DNA from: Candidatus Heimdallarchaeota archaeon B3_Heim
GTDB lineage: Archaea; Asgardarchaeota; Heimdallarchaeia; Hodarchaeales; Hodarchaeaceae
Direction of reading: 5' to 3'
Assembly (NCBI GenBank): GCA_003144275.1
Contig: NJBF01000005.1
Span: 92,319-124,318, forward strand
DNA: 32,000 nt
The position numbers were made by a program, and so were the translations under genes. The notes under the pieces were generated by a model. It saw nothing but the letters and a program-made list of their open reading frames with translations, made no database searches and was not told the origin of the DNA. Positions 3,018 to 28,941 of this stretch are shown here, in pieces; within the stretch, counting starts at the first letter, position 1; every line of letters begins with the position of its first letter.

Positions 3018-4421
3018 GTGAATCTTGTGAAAACCAATTCATTAATCAAAGCTGAATTTGATAGGGCATGGAAAGAATGGATACATGGTCATGATACAGA
3101 GGCTGCTGAAATTTGGTATTCAATTCTTCGGAAGTATCCAGAATCAGAAAATGATCAGATTTCGATTGATGCAGTAAATTATCTTGCGATGTACGAAAGA
3201 ATTTGGGAAGGAAGGATAGAAACAGAAATAGATATCATTAAAAACAGAAAAAACTCAGAAATAATAAATTACTCAAAGGGTGCAGCTGATTCTTTAATAG
3301 AGATCGCCCTCAGATCTAAATCTCAGGAGGATGCGCTTAATGAGTTTCAGGCCGCTCGGGAAATATATGAGCGACTCAATGATAAGGAAGGATTAATTAA
3401 ATTAAATTATCAATATGGAATGTATCTGGTCAATCGCGGTATTGGAAAATTCGGCCAAATCTTTAATAAATTCCAAGTTGCACTACAAAATGCAATTGAA
3501 ACAAATCGAAAATATTACAAAGCTCAAATTCATCATGGAATCGGAGAGGCATTCCTTCGTTTAGAAAATATAGAAGAGGCAAGTCACCATTTCGACATTG
3601 CATCTCAAATATATCACTATTTAAATAATGAAAGAAAAATCCTTGAAGTTCTTGTATCTAGAGCTGATGTTGAGTCACAGAATCAACAAACTACCTCATC
3701 TGAAAAATTAGTAACTCTATATGATGAGTTTACTAGTCGAAAAGAGAAAATAAAGGATAAAGTTCCAAAATCCGCTTTATTCAGTCATTTATCTCGATTT
3801 TGTGATTTATTTCTCGATTTTGAAGACTATAAACACATAAATACTCTAGTAGCAGAATTAGATGCAATATTAAGGCAAACAAATATTAATTCCAGCTTGT
3901 ACTTTCAAGGAAAAATGTCCTTAGCTTTAATAAAAGGAAATATCCAGCTTAAAATGCTGAATTTTACAAATGCTGAGGATTTATACAATTATATTCTTCG
4001 TCGAAGAGGAGAAGCAAAAATCACAGATCTTTATGGGGCATTAATCAGTTTAGCAATAATTTCTCTCTATAAATATCGTATTTTTTTCGATACGGTTCAT
4101 CTATCTGAGGCACAGAGCTTAATTCAAGACGCTATGAAAATCTCTGAAACAACTGATCACGTACGGGGATTTTTACGCGCGAGCGTCGTAAATGTGATGT
4201 TGAAAATATCTGTGGGAGACCTTGACGAAATCGATGAGATGGAACGAATCATCAAATCAGCTCAAGAAAAAGGCCTAGTAACCGAGGCGCGTAGAGCTCA
4301 GAAGGAAATTACCAGGCTAAAACGTATGATCCGAACTCAAGACAAAAGTGATGATAGATCAGTAGAAAAAATTTTGAAATATGCACTAGAAGCAAAAAGA
4401 CTGGTATGGAAAAATCAATAA
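3018..4421 (+). CDS. Tetratricopeptide-repeat (helical solenoid) protein of unknown function
   Basis: Repeated TPR-like helix pairs such as ALNEFQAAREIYERL..KLNYQYG and KAQIHHGIGEAFLRLENIEEASHHFDIASQIY; GTG start 1 nt after the tiaS stop. Confidence 0.7.
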   Translation: MNLVKTNSLIKAEFDRAWKEWIHGHDTEAAEIWYSILRKYPESENDQISIDAVNYLAMYERIWEGRIETEIDIIKNRKNSEIINYSKGAADSLIEIALRSKSQEDALNEFQAAREIYERLNDKEGLIKLNYQYGMYLVNRGIGKFGQIFNKFQVALQNAIETNRKYYKAQIHHGIGEAFLRLENIEEASHHFDIASQIYHYLNNERKILEVLVSRADVESQNQQTTSSEKLVTLYDEFTSRKEKIKDKVPKSALFSHLSRFCDLFLDFEDYKHINTLVAELDAILRQTNINSSLYFQGKMSLALIKGNIQLKMLNFTNAEDLYNYILRRRGEAKITDLYGALISLAIISLYKYRIFFDTVHLSEAQSLIQDAMKISETTDHVRGFLRASVVNVMLKISVGDLDEIDEMERIIKSAQEKGLVTEARRAQKEITRLKRMIRTQDKSDDRSVEKILKYALEAKRLVWKNQ

Positions 4422-4637
4422 ACCTACGTTCGTGGATGTGTAAGTATTCAATTTTCAGATCGACATCCAAAAAAGAAACTGTTTAATTATCTTCATTAGT
4501 TTACCACTACGGATCTTTGTGTCTTGTTGTAACTCCGATACGAGAACATAAAACAGAAAAATAAAATCGTTCTTACGAAGAAGGACTTTGGTTTATCCTC
4601 CCTAGTCCTGAAAAAGACGATATCGAAGGAATTCACG

Positions 4638-5216
4638 ATGTTTTTTCTTAATAATGTTGGCATATTCTTAGCTGAAACTTTAAATACATTCTTAACAACG
4701 TTGGCATCTTTTCCCCCAGAAAAGCCGCCCTTCTCATCAATTTTCATTCTAATAGTATCGTTCTTTGTGTCTCTCGGGTCTACTTTAGTGTCAAGATATA
4801 TGATAGACATAGAAAGATTAGGTACCTTAACGAGAGAAACAAAAAAACACAATAAAATGCGAATGGAAATGATGAAAACAGCTGACACAAAGTTAAAACT
4901 GAAGTATGAAAGAAATGCGAGCAAGATGAAGAAAATGCAATCAGAATTAACAACGATGAGAATGAAACCTTTACTCATTACATTTCTTCCCCTAATGTTA
5001 TTTTTTGTTCTTCTCTCTAATATTTACAGAGGGGGAGCGATCCCTGCAGTTATTCCGTTCGAACTACCGGAAAGCATACTTCTTAGAATAGGCACATACG
5101 AAGTTGTGGATGGATGGGGAAAAGTTTTTCGTCCTGATTATGTCTGGTGGTATTTTGGAGGCAGTATAACATTTGGATCAATCTTTCAAAAACTTGCAGG
5201 CCTACAGCCTGATTAA
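4638..5216 (+). CDS. DUF106 / EMC3-TMCO1 (Oxa1 superfamily) membrane protein
   Basis: TM1, then a basic coiled coil ending in MKPLLITFLP, then further TMs and a WVWWYF-like motif (YVWWYF..S); located directly before eL34 as is typical in archaea. Confidence 0.88.
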   Translation: MFFLNNVGIFLAETLNTFLTTLASFPPEKPPFSSIFILIVSFFVSLGSTLVSRYMIDIERLGTLTRETKKHNKMRMEMMKTADTKLKLKYERNASKMKKMQSELTTMRMKPLLITFLPLMLFFVLLSNIYRGGAIPAVIPFELPESILLRIGTYEVVDGWGKVFRPDYVWWYFGGSITFGSIFQKLAGLQPD

Positions 5217-5237: not shown

Positions 5238-5456
5238 ATGACCAAGAATATCATAAAAAAGAAAACTCCAGGCGGACAAGTCGTTACCCACAAAACAAAG
5301 AAGTCTGCATCGTCTTCTCACTGTCGAATCTGCGGCATTTCGCTGCGTACAAACAAAAAAACCAAAACAAAAAGTGGGAAACGAGTTGCTAGACCGCTTA
5401 GTGCAGAGCTTTGCCCAGCCTGCTTGAAATCCTCAATACAAATGATTGAATTATAA
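5238..5456 (+). CDS. rpl34e: Ribosomal protein eL34 (short form)
   Basis: KTPGGQVVTH, CRICG..L, RP..AELCPAC zinc motifs; N-terminal basic extension absent. Confidence 0.9.
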   Translation: MTKNIIKKKTPGGQVVTHKTKKSASSSHCRICGISLRTNKKTKTKSGKRVARPLSAELCPACLKSSIQMIEL

Positions 5457-5502
5457 AAATTTTAGGAATAACCAGCGAATCAAAGATAGAAGTGATAATA
5501 AC

Positions 5503-5904
5503 ATGAGCCCAGGAAAAAGGAAGAAGAGGATTTCATGCAAAAAATGTGGAACAGAAATTGACCCAGTGAAAACCCCTCCATTAAAAACATGGCAATTAGT
5601 AAGCCCAATGCCTGATAAAGAAGGAAGGGTTACCCTTACGATTATGGGATCATTTAGATGCCCGGAATGTAATGCTTCGGTTCGTGCAGCTCTTAAAAAG
5701 GTAAAGGGAGATGAAATGGGTTCAGGTACTTCAAAAAAGGAATCCCTCATTCAAGCAGTAAAATTAATTGAAAAACCAACCCCCATTGATGAAATAGAGA
5801 TTCAGGGAATTTCCTCTCAAGCAGTAAGAAAAGCTATTGAGACTCTCATCTCCCAGAAAAGTTTGAATGGGGAAGTAAAAGACGGAAAATTTTATCCTGA
5901 ATAA
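5503..5904 (+). CDS. Cren7-like Cys4 domain fused to a C-terminal winged-helix-like domain
   Basis: Likely start ATG 5503 (ORF track starts at 5446). PLKTWQL and GSFRCPECNASVRAAL align with Sulfolobus Cren7 PEKVWAL and GLFKDPETGKYFRHKL. C-terminal VRKAIETLISQKSLNGEVKDGKFYP resembles a wH/PCI end. Confidence 0.6.
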   Translation: MSPGKRKKRISCKKCGTEIDPVKTPPLKTWQLVSPMPDKEGRVTLTIMGSFRCPECNASVRAALKKVKGDEMGSGTSKKESLIQAVKLIEKPTPIDEIEIQGISSQAVRKAIETLISQKSLNGEVKDGKFYPE

Positions 5905-26149: not shown

Positions 26150-27703
26150 TTGGAAAGGGATGAAATAATAAGGATTTTTCTTCAATTCAATTATAATATT
26201 GGTGCGGAAACTTTAGAATATATTAAAAACCAGAATATTTCAGAGAAGGAATTAAAAGCCTTATTGAAAAGTCAAACTCTGATAGAACCAGTGATTTCAG
26301 TAAACATCTTAAAAGAGGGAATTAGAGGAAAATCAGCAAAGAAATTAGGAACCCCTTCTGCTTCTGAGGTTGAAAACAGGGTTCACATCAGAGAAAAATC
26401 CCCACTGCAGGAAACAGTGCGAAAGCCTGTAGAAAAACTACAATATTCTATAGATTTAGACATTCCCTATAAGCTATCACAGGAACCTAAAATCACAGTT
26501 TTTCGGAACCTATTTCTTGACCGATATCAATCACTATCAAGAATATTACTTGAAAATTTAGAACCAGAAACCACAGTCTTGAAGTACAACTTACAGCTTG
26601 AGGAAATTCCTCACCAGAGGGCTGGTATCCTTATTGGGATGATTCATGATACGCAAGTTTTACATACAAACCGCTTTGTAATACAACTAGAAGATCATCT
26701 AAGTGGCCATCTAACAAAATGCGTCATTGTAAAAGAAAGTCCATCATTTCCCGAATATAGGAGGATCCTAAGGGACTCAGTAATAGGAGTATCCGGAGTA
26801 TTACCAAAAAATTTTCATGAGGGACACCTGACTGCATTTTGGGGAAAAGATATCATTCGACCCTCCTTTAGAGCACATCACTTCGCAATTTCAGAACCCT
26901 CAACCAAAGTATTATGTCTTTCGGATATACACATTGGTTCTAAAAGATTTTCAAACCGTTTATTCTCCCGTCTTGTCGCATATTTAAATGAAAAAGTTAA
27001 TATACCAGATTTCCCATTTTCTGCTGAGAAGATTTCCTCTATTATCATTGCTGGAGATTTAGTGGAGGGAACAGGGGTTGTAACAAAGGAAGACAGTAAA
27101 CTTAGTATCGACTCCTTTGAAGTACAATATGAACAACTCACCAAGTTACTGAATGAAATTCCAGAGCGCATTACAATATTCACAATTCCTGGAGAACATG
27201 ATGCGTCTCAATTGGCTATCCCCCAACCGGCAATTGACAAGAAGATTGGAAAATCTCTATATTCGCTTCCAAATGTAAAAAACCACGGAAATCCTCTTCG
27301 TCTAACAATCAACGGGATGAAATTCTTGATTTTCCATGCACAAAGTTGTGAAAATAGCTTTCATCGACTATTGAAAATTGAACAGACTTCCCTGATAAAT
27401 GGCTTCAAAGAATTACTGGAATATCGTCATTTATCACCAGAATATGGATCATTTGCTGCATACGCACCTTATTCAAAAGATTATCTTGTGATTAATGAAA
27501 TGCCAGATGTATTAGTGACGGGGCATTTTCATCAAGCTGGAAAGGAGATATACAAAGGTGTACGTATAGCTACATGCGGAACATTCAAGAATCCTCACAA
27601 AACAACAGAAAAAACATATGCATTAACTTCTGTTGGTGTGTTTCCAGTTATAGATACGGGAACGGGGGAAATAACAATGATAGATCTGAAACAAATTCCT
27701 TAA
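26150..27703 (+). CDS. polD1: DNA polymerase D small subunit DP1, divergent
   Basis: N-terminal helical domain, OB fold (IGMIHD..LED), phosphoesterase motifs SDIHIGS, GDLVEG, PGEHD, FH, RHLSPEYG, GHFH; TTG start. Confidence 0.85.
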   Translation: MERDEIIRIFLQFNYNIGAETLEYIKNQNISEKELKALLKSQTLIEPVISVNILKEGIRGKSAKKLGTPSASEVENRVHIREKSPLQETVRKPVEKLQYSIDLDIPYKLSQEPKITVFRNLFLDRYQSLSRILLENLEPETTVLKYNLQLEEIPHQRAGILIGMIHDTQVLHTNRFVIQLEDHLSGHLTKCVIVKESPSFPEYRRILRDSVIGVSGVLPKNFHEGHLTAFWGKDIIRPSFRAHHFAISEPSTKVLCLSDIHIGSKRFSNRLFSRLVAYLNEKVNIPDFPFSAEKISSIIIAGDLVEGTGVVTKEDSKLSIDSFEVQYEQLTKLLNEIPERITIFTIPGEHDASQLAIPQPAIDKKIGKSLYSLPNVKNHGNPLRLTINGMKFLIFHAQSCENSFHRLLKIEQTSLINGFKELLEYRHLSPEYGSFAAYAPYSKDYLVINEMPDVLVTGHFHQAGKEIYKGVRIATCGTFKNPHKTTEKTYALTSVGVFPVIDTGTGEITMIDLKQIP

Positions 27704-28941
27704 TAACGATTGAAGTCAAATTGTTTATCTTTCTGTAACGTAGATTCAACTAAGGAACGGGGAATACTAAAATGAATCTCCTTAGTTCTTCCATGTCTAC
27801 CTCTAGACACCACACGTGCAGATATAATACCGAGAGCGTCAAGCTCGTTGATTAAATCTCCAACACGTCGCTGTGTAAGTGAGTCCATACCCGCATCACG
27901 GCACAATTGGACATATCTCTCGTATACATCACCCGTCGAGACAGCATCGGGATCACTTGTAACATTTTCAAGTTGATAGATGGAGGAAATGACAAATTTT
28001 GACTGAACAGGAAGAGTGCTGATAACTTCAGTGATTGTATTTCGTTCAATCGCTCCTTGGGCCTTCTTAACATGGGATTGAGTAATAACTTCCGAGTGTT
28101 CGCGTTCGGCAATTTCTGCTGCAACCCGAAGTAAATCCATAGCTCTTCGTGCATCACCATGCTCCTGAGCGGCAATGGCAGCGATCATATTGATAACACC
28201 TTTATCTAAGGTGTTAGGACGAAAAGCTAATTCTGCTCTTTCAACAAGAATATCAGTTATTTCTGGAGCCTCGTATGGTTTAAAAACAAGTTCTTCTTCT
28301 GAAAGAGAGGAGAGAACACGAGGATCTAAATAATCCTTAAATTTCAGATCGTTAGAAATCCCAATAATGCTAACTTTGGCACTAGAAAGATCTGAATTAA
28401 TACGAGTTAAACTATAAAGTGTTTCATTCCCAGATTTTTTGATTAGACTATCAATTTCGTCCAATACAACAATGAAAAGTGATTCCCGCTGATCTAGACC
28501 TTGTTTAAATCGAGTAAAAACTTCATCAGTTGCAAGACCAGTGAAGGGGACTTCAATGCCTAAGGTACTACAAAGATCGGCAAAGACACGATAGTTGGTG
28601 TCGACATTATTACAATTTAGATAAGCCACTTCAACTCGTAAACCATGATCGGGTGCTTTTTCCTTTAACATGCTTAAAACATACTTAGAAACAGCAGTCT
28701 TACCAGTACCAGTTTTACCGAAGCACAAGATATTACTAGGTTTAGCTCCTCGTAAAACAGAGGCTAAAATATAGCCCAATTGCTTAATTTGTTCCGTTCG
28801 GTGGGGAAGATTCTTAGGTACAAAGGAACTATCTAAAACATCGCGTCTCTGAAATAGTTTAGGTGATTTAAGATACCCCTCAAAGATTTCATCTAATGTT
28901 AAATCCGAATCATCGTTTTGTTTCAATCGTAATGCACCCAC
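27700..28941 (-). CDS. cdc6: Orc1/Cdc6 replication initiator
   Basis: LPHR, GKTGTGKT (Walker A), VLDEID (Walker B), GISN, HGDARRAMDLLR, wH GRHGRT; exact start uncertain. Confidence 0.97.
   Translation of the reverse strand: MGALRLKQNDDSDLTLDEIFEGYLKSPKLFQRRDVLDSSFVPKNLPHRTEQIKQLGYILASVLRGAKPSNILCFGKTGTGKTAVSKYVLSMLKEKAPDHGLRVEVAYLNCNNVDTNYRVFADLCSTLGIEVPFTGLATDEVFTRFKQGLDQRESLFIVVLDEIDSLIKKSGNETLYSLTRINSDLSSAKVSIIGISNDLKFKDYLDPRVLSSLSEEELVFKPYEAPEITDILVERAELAFRPNTLDKGVINMIAAIAAQEHGDARRAMDLLRVAAEIAEREHSEVITQSHVKKAQGAIERNTITEVISTLPVQSKFVISSIYQLENVTSDPDAVSTGDVYERYVQLCRDAGMDSLTQRRVGDLINELDALGIISARVVSRGRHGRTKEIHFSIPRSLVESTLQKDKQFDFNRY

Follow-up and report, generated by a model that had tools for sequence, protein, structure and literature searches.

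Cren7 is regarded as a hallmark chromatin protein of the Crenarchaeota, and the Heimdall group holds the closest archaeal relatives of eukaryotes. A small gene in the window (the whole 32,000-nt stretch of Candidatus Heimdallarchaeota archaeon B3_Heim analysed here) raises the question of whether a Cren7-type domain also occurs in this group and, if it does, what it is used for. A sequence-only reading had described the product of this gene as a Cren7-like chromatin domain with a Cys4 site, fused to a winged helix. It had also supposed an Asgard source, and the homologues and related loci place the genome in the Heimdall/Hod group of Asgard archaea, as it had thought. Kaur et al. 2018 (PMC5906684) confined the Cren7/Sul7 superfamily to Crenarchaeota and Bathyarchaeota.

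The gene and its product

The gene is complete. An ATG-initiated open reading frame on the + strand (5503..5904, stop codon 5902-5904) translates into a two-domain protein of 133 aa, with a computed mass of 14.6 kDa and a computed pI of 9.5. Database searches returned 73 homologues of roughly equal length, and homologues of 131-136 aa open with the same basic N-terminus. Between 7 and 12 nt 5' of the ATG, we read a Shine-Dalgarno-like word, AGTGAT (5491..5496, + strand), presumably complementary to the 3' end of archaeal 16S rRNA. Because this word and the starts of the homologues agree on the ATG at 5503, we took it as the start codon and ruled out an alternative TTG at 5446. An A+T-rich word, TTATAAAAATTTT (5451..5463, + strand), overlaps the stop codon of the L34e gene about 48 nt 5' of the ATG and is a possible archaeal TATA-like element, judged from its letters.

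The protein begins with a Lys/Arg-rich tail (residues 1-10; 5503..5532, + strand) that is predicted to be disordered (mean pLDDT 57) and that the alignment shows throughout the family. A Gly/Ser/acidic linker (residues 69-77; 5707..5733, + strand), with pLDDT <50 at residues 72-75, lies between the two domains and varies in length and sequence across the aligned family. A homodimer prediction made with two copies and alignment A1 gave a score of 0.00, which speaks neither for nor against a dimer.

The N-terminal domain

Profile-profile comparison and predicted fold both assign residues 9-68 (5527..5706, + strand) to a zinc-ribbon/β-barrel domain of the Cren7 superfamily. When the N-domain alignment of the family (A2) was compared by hhalign with 21 cysteine-free canonical Cren7 sequences (A3), the match reached 93.5% (E 2.2e-7, score 37.6, 40 columns), whereas no shuffle out of 60 made with the columns of A3 exceeded 5.5% or a score of 17, and the reversed alignment gave 0.4%. 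Against short Cys4 Cren7 forms that pass PF11520, A2 reached 99.1% (E 8.4e-19). These short genes score 43-58 bits with PF11520 (cut-off 25), and the A2 profile and PF11520 match the same ones, for example on G440:C3. By BLASTP, the 133-aa protein shares 46% identity with a 47-aa Cys4 Cren7 over 54 aligned positions (E 1e-11). Two distant relatives (P0114 and P0095) gave sub-threshold PF11520 matches (E 0.002-0.006), and four very long proteins in which only residues 24-66 were matched, in repeats, (P0103, P0105, P0106 and P0115) were left out as probably spurious. With profile-profile matches lying so far above the shuffled controls, the Cren7-like character claimed for the N-terminal half is borne out, and we are highly confident that the N-domain is homologous to the Cren7 superfamily.

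The proposed Pfam check, in contrast, came out negative, with PF11520 matching neither the protein (E <= 1) nor the genome (E <= 10). The gathering cut-off of this model (25 bits) was passed in 0 of 400 Asgard genomes, although the control genome, Sulfolobus acidocaldarius, did pass it, so that Pfam-based surveys are blind to the Asgard Cren7-type domain. Pfam and NCBIfam scans of the protein gave sub-threshold matches to generic zinc ribbons and wHTH domains and none to Cren7, and a PDB sequence-profile search found no Cren7 even at E <= 10. Some orthologues already bear the name "chromatin protein Cren7" at NCBI, and UniRef labels relatives likewise; Pfam and NCBIfam scans of those orthologues did not reproduce the NCBI name.

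All of the motifs quoted in the sequence-only reading are present, namely CKKC (C12, C15), PLKTWQL (residues 26-32), GSFRCPECNASVRAAL (residues 49-64) and CPEC (C53, C56), and the Cren7 numbering that it had used (P22, K24, W26, L28, G39, F41, P44, E45, R51, L54) is right for a 60-aa Cren7. The first zinc knuckle, C12-x2-C15 followed by G16 (5536..5547, + strand), lies at the predicted β1/β2 turn, and the second, C53-P-E-C56 (5659..5670, + strand), at the β4/β5 turn. C12 and C15 are invariant in alignment A1 (the broad family) and in A2, and C53 and C56 are invariant in A1. In a MAFFT alignment of 76 domain sequences, which we used to pair positions, C12/C15 stand opposite T12/N14 of Cren7; C53/C56 stand opposite its D-P-E-T turn. 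Together, these four cysteines would hold one zinc ion.

The same alignment pairs P22/K24/W26/L28 of Cren7 with P26/K28/W30/L32, on a strand at 5578..5598 (+ strand) that column mapping and conservation identify, and G39/F41/P44/R51/L54 with G49/F51/P54/R61/L64. Both motifs are thus spaced as in Cren7, as had been claimed, and the loop between them is longer. According to a passage of PMC8927968 that cites Zhang et al. 2017, K24 takes part in DNA contact and L28 is the intercalating residue. The equivalents of K24, W26, L28 and R51, which the earlier reading had held to be retained, are indeed kept across 27 family sequences (K28 in 25, W30 in all 27, L/M/I32 in 24 and R/K61 in 20). The R33 equivalent is partly kept (R in 16 of the 27, N in 10), and in the same 27 sequences other DNA contacts of Cren7 are lost, with K31 replaced by P35, K42 falling at a variable position and K53 replaced by A, V or S. 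The tail and N-domain (residues 1-70) have a joint pI of 9.97.

The β3-β4 hairpin (S34-G49; 5602..5649, + strand), which the alignment resolves as SPxPDxxGRxTxTxMG, is 5-7 residues longer than that of Cren7 and is a marker of the Cren7Znr-like branch. D38, G41 and T44 are invariant in the family alignment, and S34, P35, P37, T46 and M48 nearly so; the invariant Asp38 occupies the site of the basic loop by which Cren7 contacts DNA (K31, R33). Crenarchaeal tail-bearing proteins have this extended hairpin in common, and neither canonical nor short Cys4 Cren7 has it. The N-terminal half belongs to the Cren7 superfamily as a divergent member, with all four ligands of the Cys4 site intact and a longer β3-β4 hairpin.

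For the structure search we modelled the N-domain separately, because the winged helix had filled the VIA-align list of the whole-protein model (152 chains at Z >= 5, with the 50 top entries listed covering only residues 73-133 and nearly all being winged helices). The domain folded alone gave a model with pLDDT 79. A Foldseek search of the whole PDB put Cren7 chains at ranks 1-6 and again at rank 12 among the first 16 (TM 0.53-0.65, about 3 Å over 57 columns, 21-28% identity), with modest E-values of 0.08-0.6. The best of 48,161 chains by VIA-align was likewise Cren7 (4r55_A, Z 4.5), by a small margin, as the plain zinc ribbons ZPR1 and NrdR followed at Z 3.8, within 1 of Cren7. These scores are modest because the domain is small. 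The per-domain structural check that had been proposed thus tops out on Cren7, narrowly above plain zinc ribbons, and the model predicts a five-stranded SH3-like/type-2 zinc-ribbon barrel as in PDB 3KXT and 2JTM. Zinc-binding Cren7 relatives and their zinc-ribbon origin were described by Kaur et al. 2018 (PMC5906684); since Cren7 barrels stem from zinc ribbons, the choice between a generic zinc ribbon and a Cren7 barrel, on which the sequence-only reading had staked its claim, is no real dichotomy.

The C-terminal winged helix

DSSP and VIA-align on the model identify residues 78-133 (5734..5901, + strand; pI 6.5) as a winged-helix domain. DSSP places helices at 78-87 and 105-117 and a C-terminal β hairpin at 123-132 (strands 123-126 and 129-132). 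The best VIA-align match is DDRGK1 (8c0d_E, Z 8.2, 1.4 Å over 54 residues), followed by the winged helices of CSN PCI, BirA, ScpB and SelB (Z 6.8-7.4). The label "wH/PCI-like" given to this domain earlier therefore holds for the winged helix, the best structural matches of which include PCI-type domains and DDRGK1, and fails for membership of the PCI family. The protein is without a helical repeat (a zinc ribbon precedes the winged helix), and no PCI model is among its Pfam matches. The two halves carry different charge, and among 18 family members the net charge runs from +5 to +14 for the N-module and from -6 to +4 for the winged helix.

Distribution and nearest relatives

The winged-helix form is present as a single copy in 73 of the 82 other genomes of the class to which the window belongs, and full-length single-copy matches occur in 93 of 400 Asgard genomes. 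Genomes bearing the labels Njord-, Sif- and Borrarchaeum have it too; the other Asgard families that were searched yielded no match. The 133-aa protein is 72% identical to its counterpart in a congener, and L11 and L34e of these loci are 77% and 57% identical. Near-universal in the class, single-copy and conserved about like a ribosomal protein, the gene has housekeeping character. The sequencing runs listed were of marine-sediment and cold-seep DNA, with partial shares, and none was of RNA.

The closest relatives are crenarchaeal proteins of 91-115 aa that share the extended hairpin but end in an acidic tail. Phmmer comparison with crenarchaeal representatives gave E-values from 2e-14 (the Fervidicoccus protein) to 2e-10, and tblastn found 45-58% identity to genes of Sulfolobaceae, Desulfurococcales, Acidilobaceae and Pyrodictiaceae. 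In a domain tree built on 64 columns only, the Asgard and the crenarchaeal tail-bearing groups each form one side of a branch (SH-aLRT 94 and 97), and the two groups together with Bathyarchaeota forms are supported at 99; this topology suggests that the Asgard winged-helix form and the crenarchaeal tail-bearing branch are sister groups. The kinship to Cren7 proposed earlier thus stands as homology, but the nearest relatives are a paralogous Cys4 branch of the Crenarchaeota and not canonical Cren7. All 15 searched genomes with canonical Cren7 of the Sulfolobales/Desulfurococcales type also carry the extended-hairpin branch, at a separate locus, which implies that this branch does a different job.

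Proposed function and alternatives

We modestly favor the view that the gene encodes a two-module housekeeping protein of the Heimdall group, in which a nucleic-acid-binding Cren7-type module is joined to a docking winged helix. Module 1 (residues 9-68) would be a Cren7 fold stabilized by one zinc between the two CxxC knuckles, with a three-stranded sheet that presents K28, W30, L32 and R61, the counterparts of Cren7 DNA-contacting residues. This very basic module and the Lys/Arg tail would form the nucleic-acid-binding part. That the protein binds nucleic acid is very probable, and we lean slightly toward DNA rather than RNA as the ligand; the target would most probably be dsDNA, bound on its minor-groove side as Cren7 does. 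The SPxPDxxGRxTxTxMG hairpin would stand in for the K31/R33 loop of Cren7, and details of binding therefore probably differ.

The winged helix of module 2 (residues 78-133), near-neutral and borne by a flexible linker, would most probably dock a protein partner, taking the place of the acidic C-terminal peptide of the crenarchaeal relatives. We put forward this adaptor role more tentatively, at somewhat short of even confidence. DNA and RNA are further ligands of winged helices, and the fold by itself does not reveal which kind is bound. The protein as a whole would tether a partner to nucleic acid, leaving genome packaging to histones and Alba.

The gene neighborhoods point to translation and secretion genes rather than chromatin genes. 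In the window, the gene follows EMC3/DUF106 and L34e, and TruD-L11-L1 faces it. In another Asgard family (locus L070) it lies between L11 and Spt5-SecE, near FtsY, prefoldin and LX, in a further lineage it adjoins L10-Spt5-SecE after FtsY and D-Tyr-tRNA deacylase, and in family f7 the EMG1/Nep1 rRNA methyltransferase gene is adjacent. A co-directional signal peptidase gene comes next in 28 of 46 loci of the crenarchaeal relatives. These neighbors argue for an RNA- or ribosome-associated factor of translation or co-translational targeting, in which the basic zinc-ribbon sheet would sit on rRNA or other RNA and the winged helix would touch a protein of the ribosome or one associated with the translocon. 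Binding to rRNA is a property of the zinc ribbons of eL42 and eL43, and weak profile matches point in that direction (Pfam L44e, E 0.003-0.04; PDB eL43, E 0.16-0.3), as do the JGI name of one Bathyarchaeota relative, "RNA-binding Zn-ribbon protein involved in translation", and DDRGK1, the best structural match of the winged helix, which is a ribosome-docking adaptor.

However, the ribosomal-protein neighborhood is not kept across the class. Families f3-f6 have instead a conserved downstream gene, 'c1', and elsewhere PAC2, HypD or thermosome genes lie nearby; many unrelated housekeeping genes also sit in archaeal ribosomal-protein clusters. (The 'c1' protein has no Pfam match below E 0.02 and no PDB sequence match, and its Atlas result was uninformative, with low recognition.) Moreover, the eL42/eL43 matches are far weaker than the link to Cren7, the canonical members of which are the only characterized relatives and bind dsDNA, and many unrelated winged helices score within 1 Z unit of DDRGK1. 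We therefore regard a role on RNA or the ribosome as unlikely, while giving it the most weight among the alternatives.

An improbable alternative is a sequence-specific regulator or basal-factor-like protein of TFIIB/TFE type, with a winged helix that would read a DNA site and a zinc ribbon that would touch either RNA polymerase or DNA. Zinc ribbons combined with winged helices are common in archaeal transcription proteins, two orthologues are named TFIIB/Brf1 by JGI, and there are weak matches both to the Pfam TFIIB zinc ribbon (E 8e-6 to 0.01) and, for the C-domain profile, to the winged helices of MarR, Lrs14, Lrp and GntR (E 0.04-0.2). However, none of these matches reaches a curated cut-off, the zinc ribbon matches Cren7 specifically at profile level, and the near-neutral winged helix would be unusual for a DNA-reading helix. 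The single-copy, near-universal presence of the gene in the class, with no conserved regulated neighbor, also speaks against regulation of this kind.

The same genome has ten histone-fold and two Alba matches, which makes it unlikely that the protein, supposed earlier to be a chromatin adaptor, is the main component of the chromatin. Packaging of the genome in bulk, in the manner of crenarchaeal Cren7, is thus a very improbable role, even though the Cren7 homology and fold, the small size and basic pI and the "chromatin protein Cren7" labels of relatives would fit it, given also that the extended-hairpin branch occurs beside canonical Cren7 at separate loci and that the winged helix, which makes up half of the protein, is not basic.

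A broader reading of the tethering protein, speculative and in our estimate quite unlikely, is that the extended-hairpin Cys4 branch descends from a TACK-Asgard ancestor and tethers DNA or the ribosome to a cellular machine, through an acidic peptide inserted in trans into a domain of the partner in Crenarchaeota and a PCI/DDRGK1-like winged helix fused in cis in the Heimdall group. If true, the branch would represent a novel type of adaptor, serving in chromosome segregation, in cell division or in co-translational targeting, with 'c1' as a candidate partner.

Implications

The gene, its conservation and distribution, the Cys4 pattern, the homology and the predicted folds extend the Cren7 superfamily into Heimdall-group Asgard archaea, where a Cren7-type domain coexists with histone-based chromatin. 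Zinc-binding Cren7 relatives and a crenarchaeal Cys4 branch were already known; the occurrence in Asgard archaea goes beyond the range given by Kaur et al., and the winged helix is not listed with the partners to which Cren7 is known to be fused (CdvA-like coiled coil, FtsZ and nucleases). The zinc-bound Cren7 branch is thus older and wider than had been thought. In addition, a universal, uncharacterized paralogue, of 106-109 aa in Sulfolobus or Saccharolobus, comes to light in the Sulfolobales, which are genetically tractable and could serve to test what the branch as a whole does.

Comparison with known systems

The C-domain superposes on PCI-like winged helices of DDRGK1/UFL1, CSN, eIF3 and the proteasome lid (PDB 8C0D, 4D18 and 1WI9), with Z 8.2 for DDRGK1 and 7.1-7.4 for the others. 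Identity to these domains is only 12-20%, no family cut-off is reached, and the winged helices of BirA, ScpB, SelB and NiaR lie within 1 Z unit of them. On the model, this likeness probably reflects a shared common fold rather than kinship.

The short Cys4 Cren7 proteins of Thermoproteota (47-54 aa, L049-L052), zinc-retaining orthologues of a kind already pointed out by Kaur et al. (PMC5906684), share with the family of the 133-aa protein two CPxCG knuckles, the KTWxL strand and an F-x-C-P-x-C-G-x-x-F-R-A end, but their loop is short as in Cren7 (APKGRK), and they lack both a tail and a second domain.

Canonical Cren7, which we take to be Pfam PF11520, Sso6901 and PDB 2JTM, 3KXT, 3LWH and 6A2I, is an abundant DNA-kinking protein of histone-poor Crenarchaeota that binds the dsDNA minor groove, kinks the DNA and constrains negative supercoils. 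The N-domain has the same predicted fold and keeps the equivalents of P22, K24, W26, L28, G39, F41, P44 and R51. Whereas canonical Cren7 is a single domain of 58-70 aa with no zinc ligands and a short K31/R33 loop, the 133-aa protein has a Cys4 site, a longer hairpin and a second domain, is PF11520-negative and comes from a genome with histones.

The closest known system is the Cren7Znr family (Kaur, Iyer, Subramanian & Aravind 2018, Sci Rep 8:6196, PMC5906684), to which the crenarchaeal 91-115-aa proteins, such as Fervidicoccus fontis WP_014557275.1 and Ignisphaera aggregans ADM27988.1, presumably belong, judging from the verbal description of that family. Like Cren7Znr, the 133-aa protein has four intact zinc ligands at the β1/β2 and β4/β5 turns, and it shares with the crenarchaeal proteins the SPxPDxxGRxTxTxMG hairpin, the KTW strand, the basic N-terminal tail, 45-58% identity over the domain and a neighboring place in the domain tree. 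Its lineage is Heimdall-group Asgard rather than Thermoproteota, and its gene neighborhoods differ. The C-terminal extension of Cren7Znr with its invariant acidic residue is confined to the crenarchaeal group and missing in the Asgard proteins. In place of the Lys/Glu-rich linker and terminal acidic motif (I-I-E-L-D-L-x-D-L-D-E-E type) of the crenarchaeal proteins, the Asgard proteins carry a 56-aa winged helix.

The gene and its surroundings in the window

The Cren7-like/winged-helix gene (5503-5904, + strand) is an ORF of 133 codons opening with ATG. The ORF listing also gives an alternative TTG start at 5446, overlapping the 3' end of L34e. A search of 5.8 billion proteins recovered 73 homologues of 131-136 aa, all with the Lys/Arg-rich N-terminus of the ATG-started product. 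Because these N-termini agree and an AGTGAT word lies 7-12 nt 5' of the ATG at 5503, we took this codon as the start and dropped the TTG. The 133-aa protein has a mass of 14.6 kDa and a pI of 9.5 (9.97 for residues 1-70, 6.5 for residues 78-133).

Housekeeping genes dominate the window. Deoxyhypusine synthase, TiaS, EMC3/DUF106 and L34e precede the gene, and TruD, L11, L1, eIF6, LX, prefoldin, FtsY, L10 and RpoB are its convergent 3' neighbours; a class I tRNA synthetase, AglB/STT3, the PolD small subunit and Orc1/Cdc6 are more distant. The latter two genes (+ and - strand, respectively) are convergent at 26150-28941, and such pairs are often close to archaeal replication origins. Between TiaS and EMC3, a GTG-started ORF encodes 467 aa (3018-4421, +); a Pfam scan found no family for it at E <= 1e-5. 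As TiaS is directly followed by EMC3 in two same-genus genomes (loci L072 and L001), the extra gene is an insertion confined to B3_Heim or its near kin. At L001, EMC3/DUF106 (3412-4689) is 425 aa, with its two conserved parts split by a ~650-nt insert, and a 52-aa TruD remnant (5415-5575) is all that is left beside the Cren7-like gene.

The N-terminal domain is very probably a Cren7 relative

Standard tests did not assign the protein to Cren7. The PF11520 search proposed by the sequence-only reading came back empty, with zero matches at E <= 10 in the whole B3_Heim genome, and this model scored above its cut-off in 0 of 400 Asgard genomes. Pfam and NCBIfam scans of the window's protein gave generic zinc-ribbon and wHTH matches below threshold and none other, and a PDB sequence search with the family profile returned no Cren7. 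Databases already name some orthologues Cren7; for those that NCBI calls "chromatin protein Cren7", current models likewise give no match.

More sensitive comparisons strongly support homology. An hhalign comparison of our N-domain alignment (31 sequences) with 21 canonical Cren7 sequences gave 93.5% (E 2.2e-7, score 37.6), spanning the K-x-W strand to the F-R end. As the canonical set is without knuckle cysteines, the cysteines cannot drive this match. Controls reached at most 5.5% (score 17) in 60 column shuffles of the Cren7 alignment and 0.4% with that alignment reversed. Four Cys4 genes of 47-54 aa score 43-58 bits against PF11520 and so are Cren7 by Pfam's own rule; the N-domain family matches them at 99.1% (hhalign, E 8.4e-19), and one of them shares 46% identity with the window's protein over 54 aligned positions. 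In several genomes the N-domain profile and PF11520 picked up identical short genes, and two remote relatives have PF11520 matches below threshold. The N-domain is thus very probably a Cren7 relative, which standard tests miss and more sensitive ones detect.

All the Cren7-like motifs originally quoted are present in the window's protein, and the Cren7 residues and numbering of the sequence-only reading exactly match a 60-aa Cren7 read from genomic ORFs. Our reference sequences were ORFs under PF11520 matches in Ignisphaera and 121 Thermoproteota genomes. A joint alignment of 76 domains pairs Cren7 and window residues as P22/P26, K24/K28, W26/W30, L28/L32, G39/G49, F41/F51, P44/P54, R51/R61 and L54/L64, and maps both CxxC pairs to the beta1/beta2 and beta4/beta5 turns of Cren7. 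In Cren7, K24 and K31 contact DNA and L28 intercalates (PMC8927968). The family keeps K28, W30, L/M32 and R61 and has lost three further DNA contacts; in place of the K31/R33 loop is a hairpin with invariant D38, G41 and T44 and nearly invariant P35. Net charge is +5 to +14 for the N-module and -6 to +4 for the winged helix.

Predicted structure of the two domains

The whole-protein model (pLDDT 76) has a beta domain, a disordered linker (pLDDT < 50 at residues 72-75) and a helical domain that ends in a hairpin. When the N-domain was modelled by itself (pLDDT 79), Foldseek against the PDB placed Cren7 chains at ranks 1-6 and 12 among the first 16 (TM 0.53-0.56 by query and 0.58-0.65 by target, probability 0.90-1.0, rmsd ~3 A over 57 columns, identity 21-28%), with E-values of only 0.08-0.6 because the domain is tiny. 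An independent structural alignment against 48,161 chains (VIA-align) also ranked Cren7 first (4r55_A, Z 4.5, 2.9 A over 47 residues), followed by the ZPR1 and NrdR zinc ribbons at Z 3.8, which the aligner's own rule counts as a tie. The sequence-only reading had named a generic zinc ribbon instead of the Cren7 barrel as a refuting outcome. As Cren7 itself is a zinc ribbon that has lost its metal (Kaur et al. 2018, PMC5906684), a description that this ranking fits, that contrast is a false choice; as far as the two can be told apart, the best match of the domain is Cren7.

The C-domain is, as proposed, a predicted winged helix with PCI-type folds among its best structural matches: DDRGK1 is first (8c0d_E, Z 8.2, 1.4 A over 54 residues), with the CSN PCI, BirA, ScpB, SelB and many others next, at Z 6-7.4. 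In Pfam and PDB sequence searches it was claimed by no family.

Distribution in Asgard archaea

The full-length profile has strong matches over its whole length (E < 1e-20) in 93 of 400 Asgard genomes, almost always in single copy. Strong matches occur in 73 of the 82 other genomes of the window's class, and 19 more are spread over eight other families. The remaining families, including f12 (19 genomes), f20 (135) and f31 (most of 89), have weak matches only, limited to the winged helix. Holders are labelled Heimdallarchaeota, Hodarchaeota, Njordarchaeota, Sifarchaeum and Borrarchaeum; we would not trust the few Thor-, Hermod- and Nitrososphaerota labels, whose sequences are 39-75% identical to the window's protein. 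One weak match (genome G006, contig C190:1620-1940, E 5e-8, profile residues 10-110) takes in the zinc ribbon and reaches into the second domain; it may represent a diverged relative in family f11, which is otherwise without the gene.

Gene neighbourhoods and function

EMC3-L34e lies upstream of the gene only within the window's taxonomic order. The gene lies between L11 and Spt5-SecE in one Asgard family and adjoins L10-Spt5-SecE in another lineage; elsewhere EMG1, HypD, PAC2 or thermosome genes are nearby. In four Heimdall-class families, a 255-317-aa gene, c1, is directly 3' in the same direction at seven loci (L058:4402-5169, L061:4413-5252, L053:4864-5712, L054:4853-5713 and L055:4815-5669, +; L057:3208-3981 and L056:3018-3971, -). 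Its product, a candidate partner, has a conserved C-terminal motif (G-F-x-G-x-D ... G-L-x-G-L-x-x-R), no Pfam match below E 0.02 and an empty PDB sequence search; B3_Heim itself has a homologue away from the Cren7-like gene (contig C33). The tail-bearing relatives in Crenarchaeota have a local gene order of their own (L018:3594-7874 and 46 loci, L115-L163): at 28 of the 46, the next gene encodes a signal peptidase (S26/S24), with a 4-nt overlap in Ignisphaera. Enolase is divergent upstream within 1 kb at 16 of these 46, and a type IA topoisomerase gene (Toprim/Topoisom_bac) is convergent after the signal peptidase gene at ~12.

We lean slightly towards a putative nucleic-acid-binding module with a docking domain tethered to it. 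The main rival, an RNA or ribosome role, appears rather unlikely and is kept alive because the neighbourhoods have a translation/secretion flavour. Sequence conservation is high: identity to a congener is 72% for this protein, 77% for L11 and 57% for L34e. A role as bulk chromatin protein was set aside, given ten histone-fold and two Alba matches in the B3_Heim genome. For the nucleic-acid-binding module, the ligand is more probably DNA than RNA.

Place in the Cren7 superfamily

Zinc-bound Cren7 relatives and zinc-ribbon ancestry have been described (PMC5906684). In the searchable literature we found neither the Cren7 superfamily in Asgard archaea, nor a winged-helix fusion of a Cren7-like domain, nor the presence of such a gene, in single copy, in nearly all of the Heimdall/Hod class.

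Among 1.84 billion representatives, searched exhaustively, there were 41 clusters in total, with three groups beyond the two-domain Asgard form: crenarchaeal tail proteins, stand-alone Bathyarchaeota proteins (71-78 aa) and fusions of the Cren7-like domain to a coiled coil. SH-aLRT support is 94 for the branch with Asgard winged-helix proteins on one side, 97 for that with crenarchaeal tail proteins on one side, and 99 for the split of the Asgard, crenarchaeal tail and Bathyarchaeota forms from coiled-coil, short Cys4 and canonical Cren7; with only 64 columns, this tree is indicative only.

The crenarchaeal proteins (91-115 aa) occur in Fervidicoccus, Ignisphaera, Ignicoccus, Desulfurococcales, Acidilobaceae, Pyrodictiaceae, Acidianus, Metallosphaera, Saccharolobus and Stygiolobus. 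They share the extended hairpin of the window's protein but have their own Lys/Glu linker and acidic C-terminal motif. All 15 searched genomes with Sulfolobales/Desulfurococcales-type Cren7 also have the extended-hairpin gene at a separate locus, and in Ignisphaera PF11520 picks up three canonical Cren7 genes and misses it. These proteins are paralogues of Cren7, and by verbal definition rather than by accession the group fits Cren7Znr of PMC5906684. Three relatives of 144-145 aa (P0112, P0113 and P0114, the last matching PF11520 at E 0.002) have an N-terminal Cys4 Cren7-like domain followed by a long coiled coil, a make-up similar to the CdvA-like coiled-coil/Cren7 fusions of Kaur et al. (PMC5906684) but with the domain order reversed.
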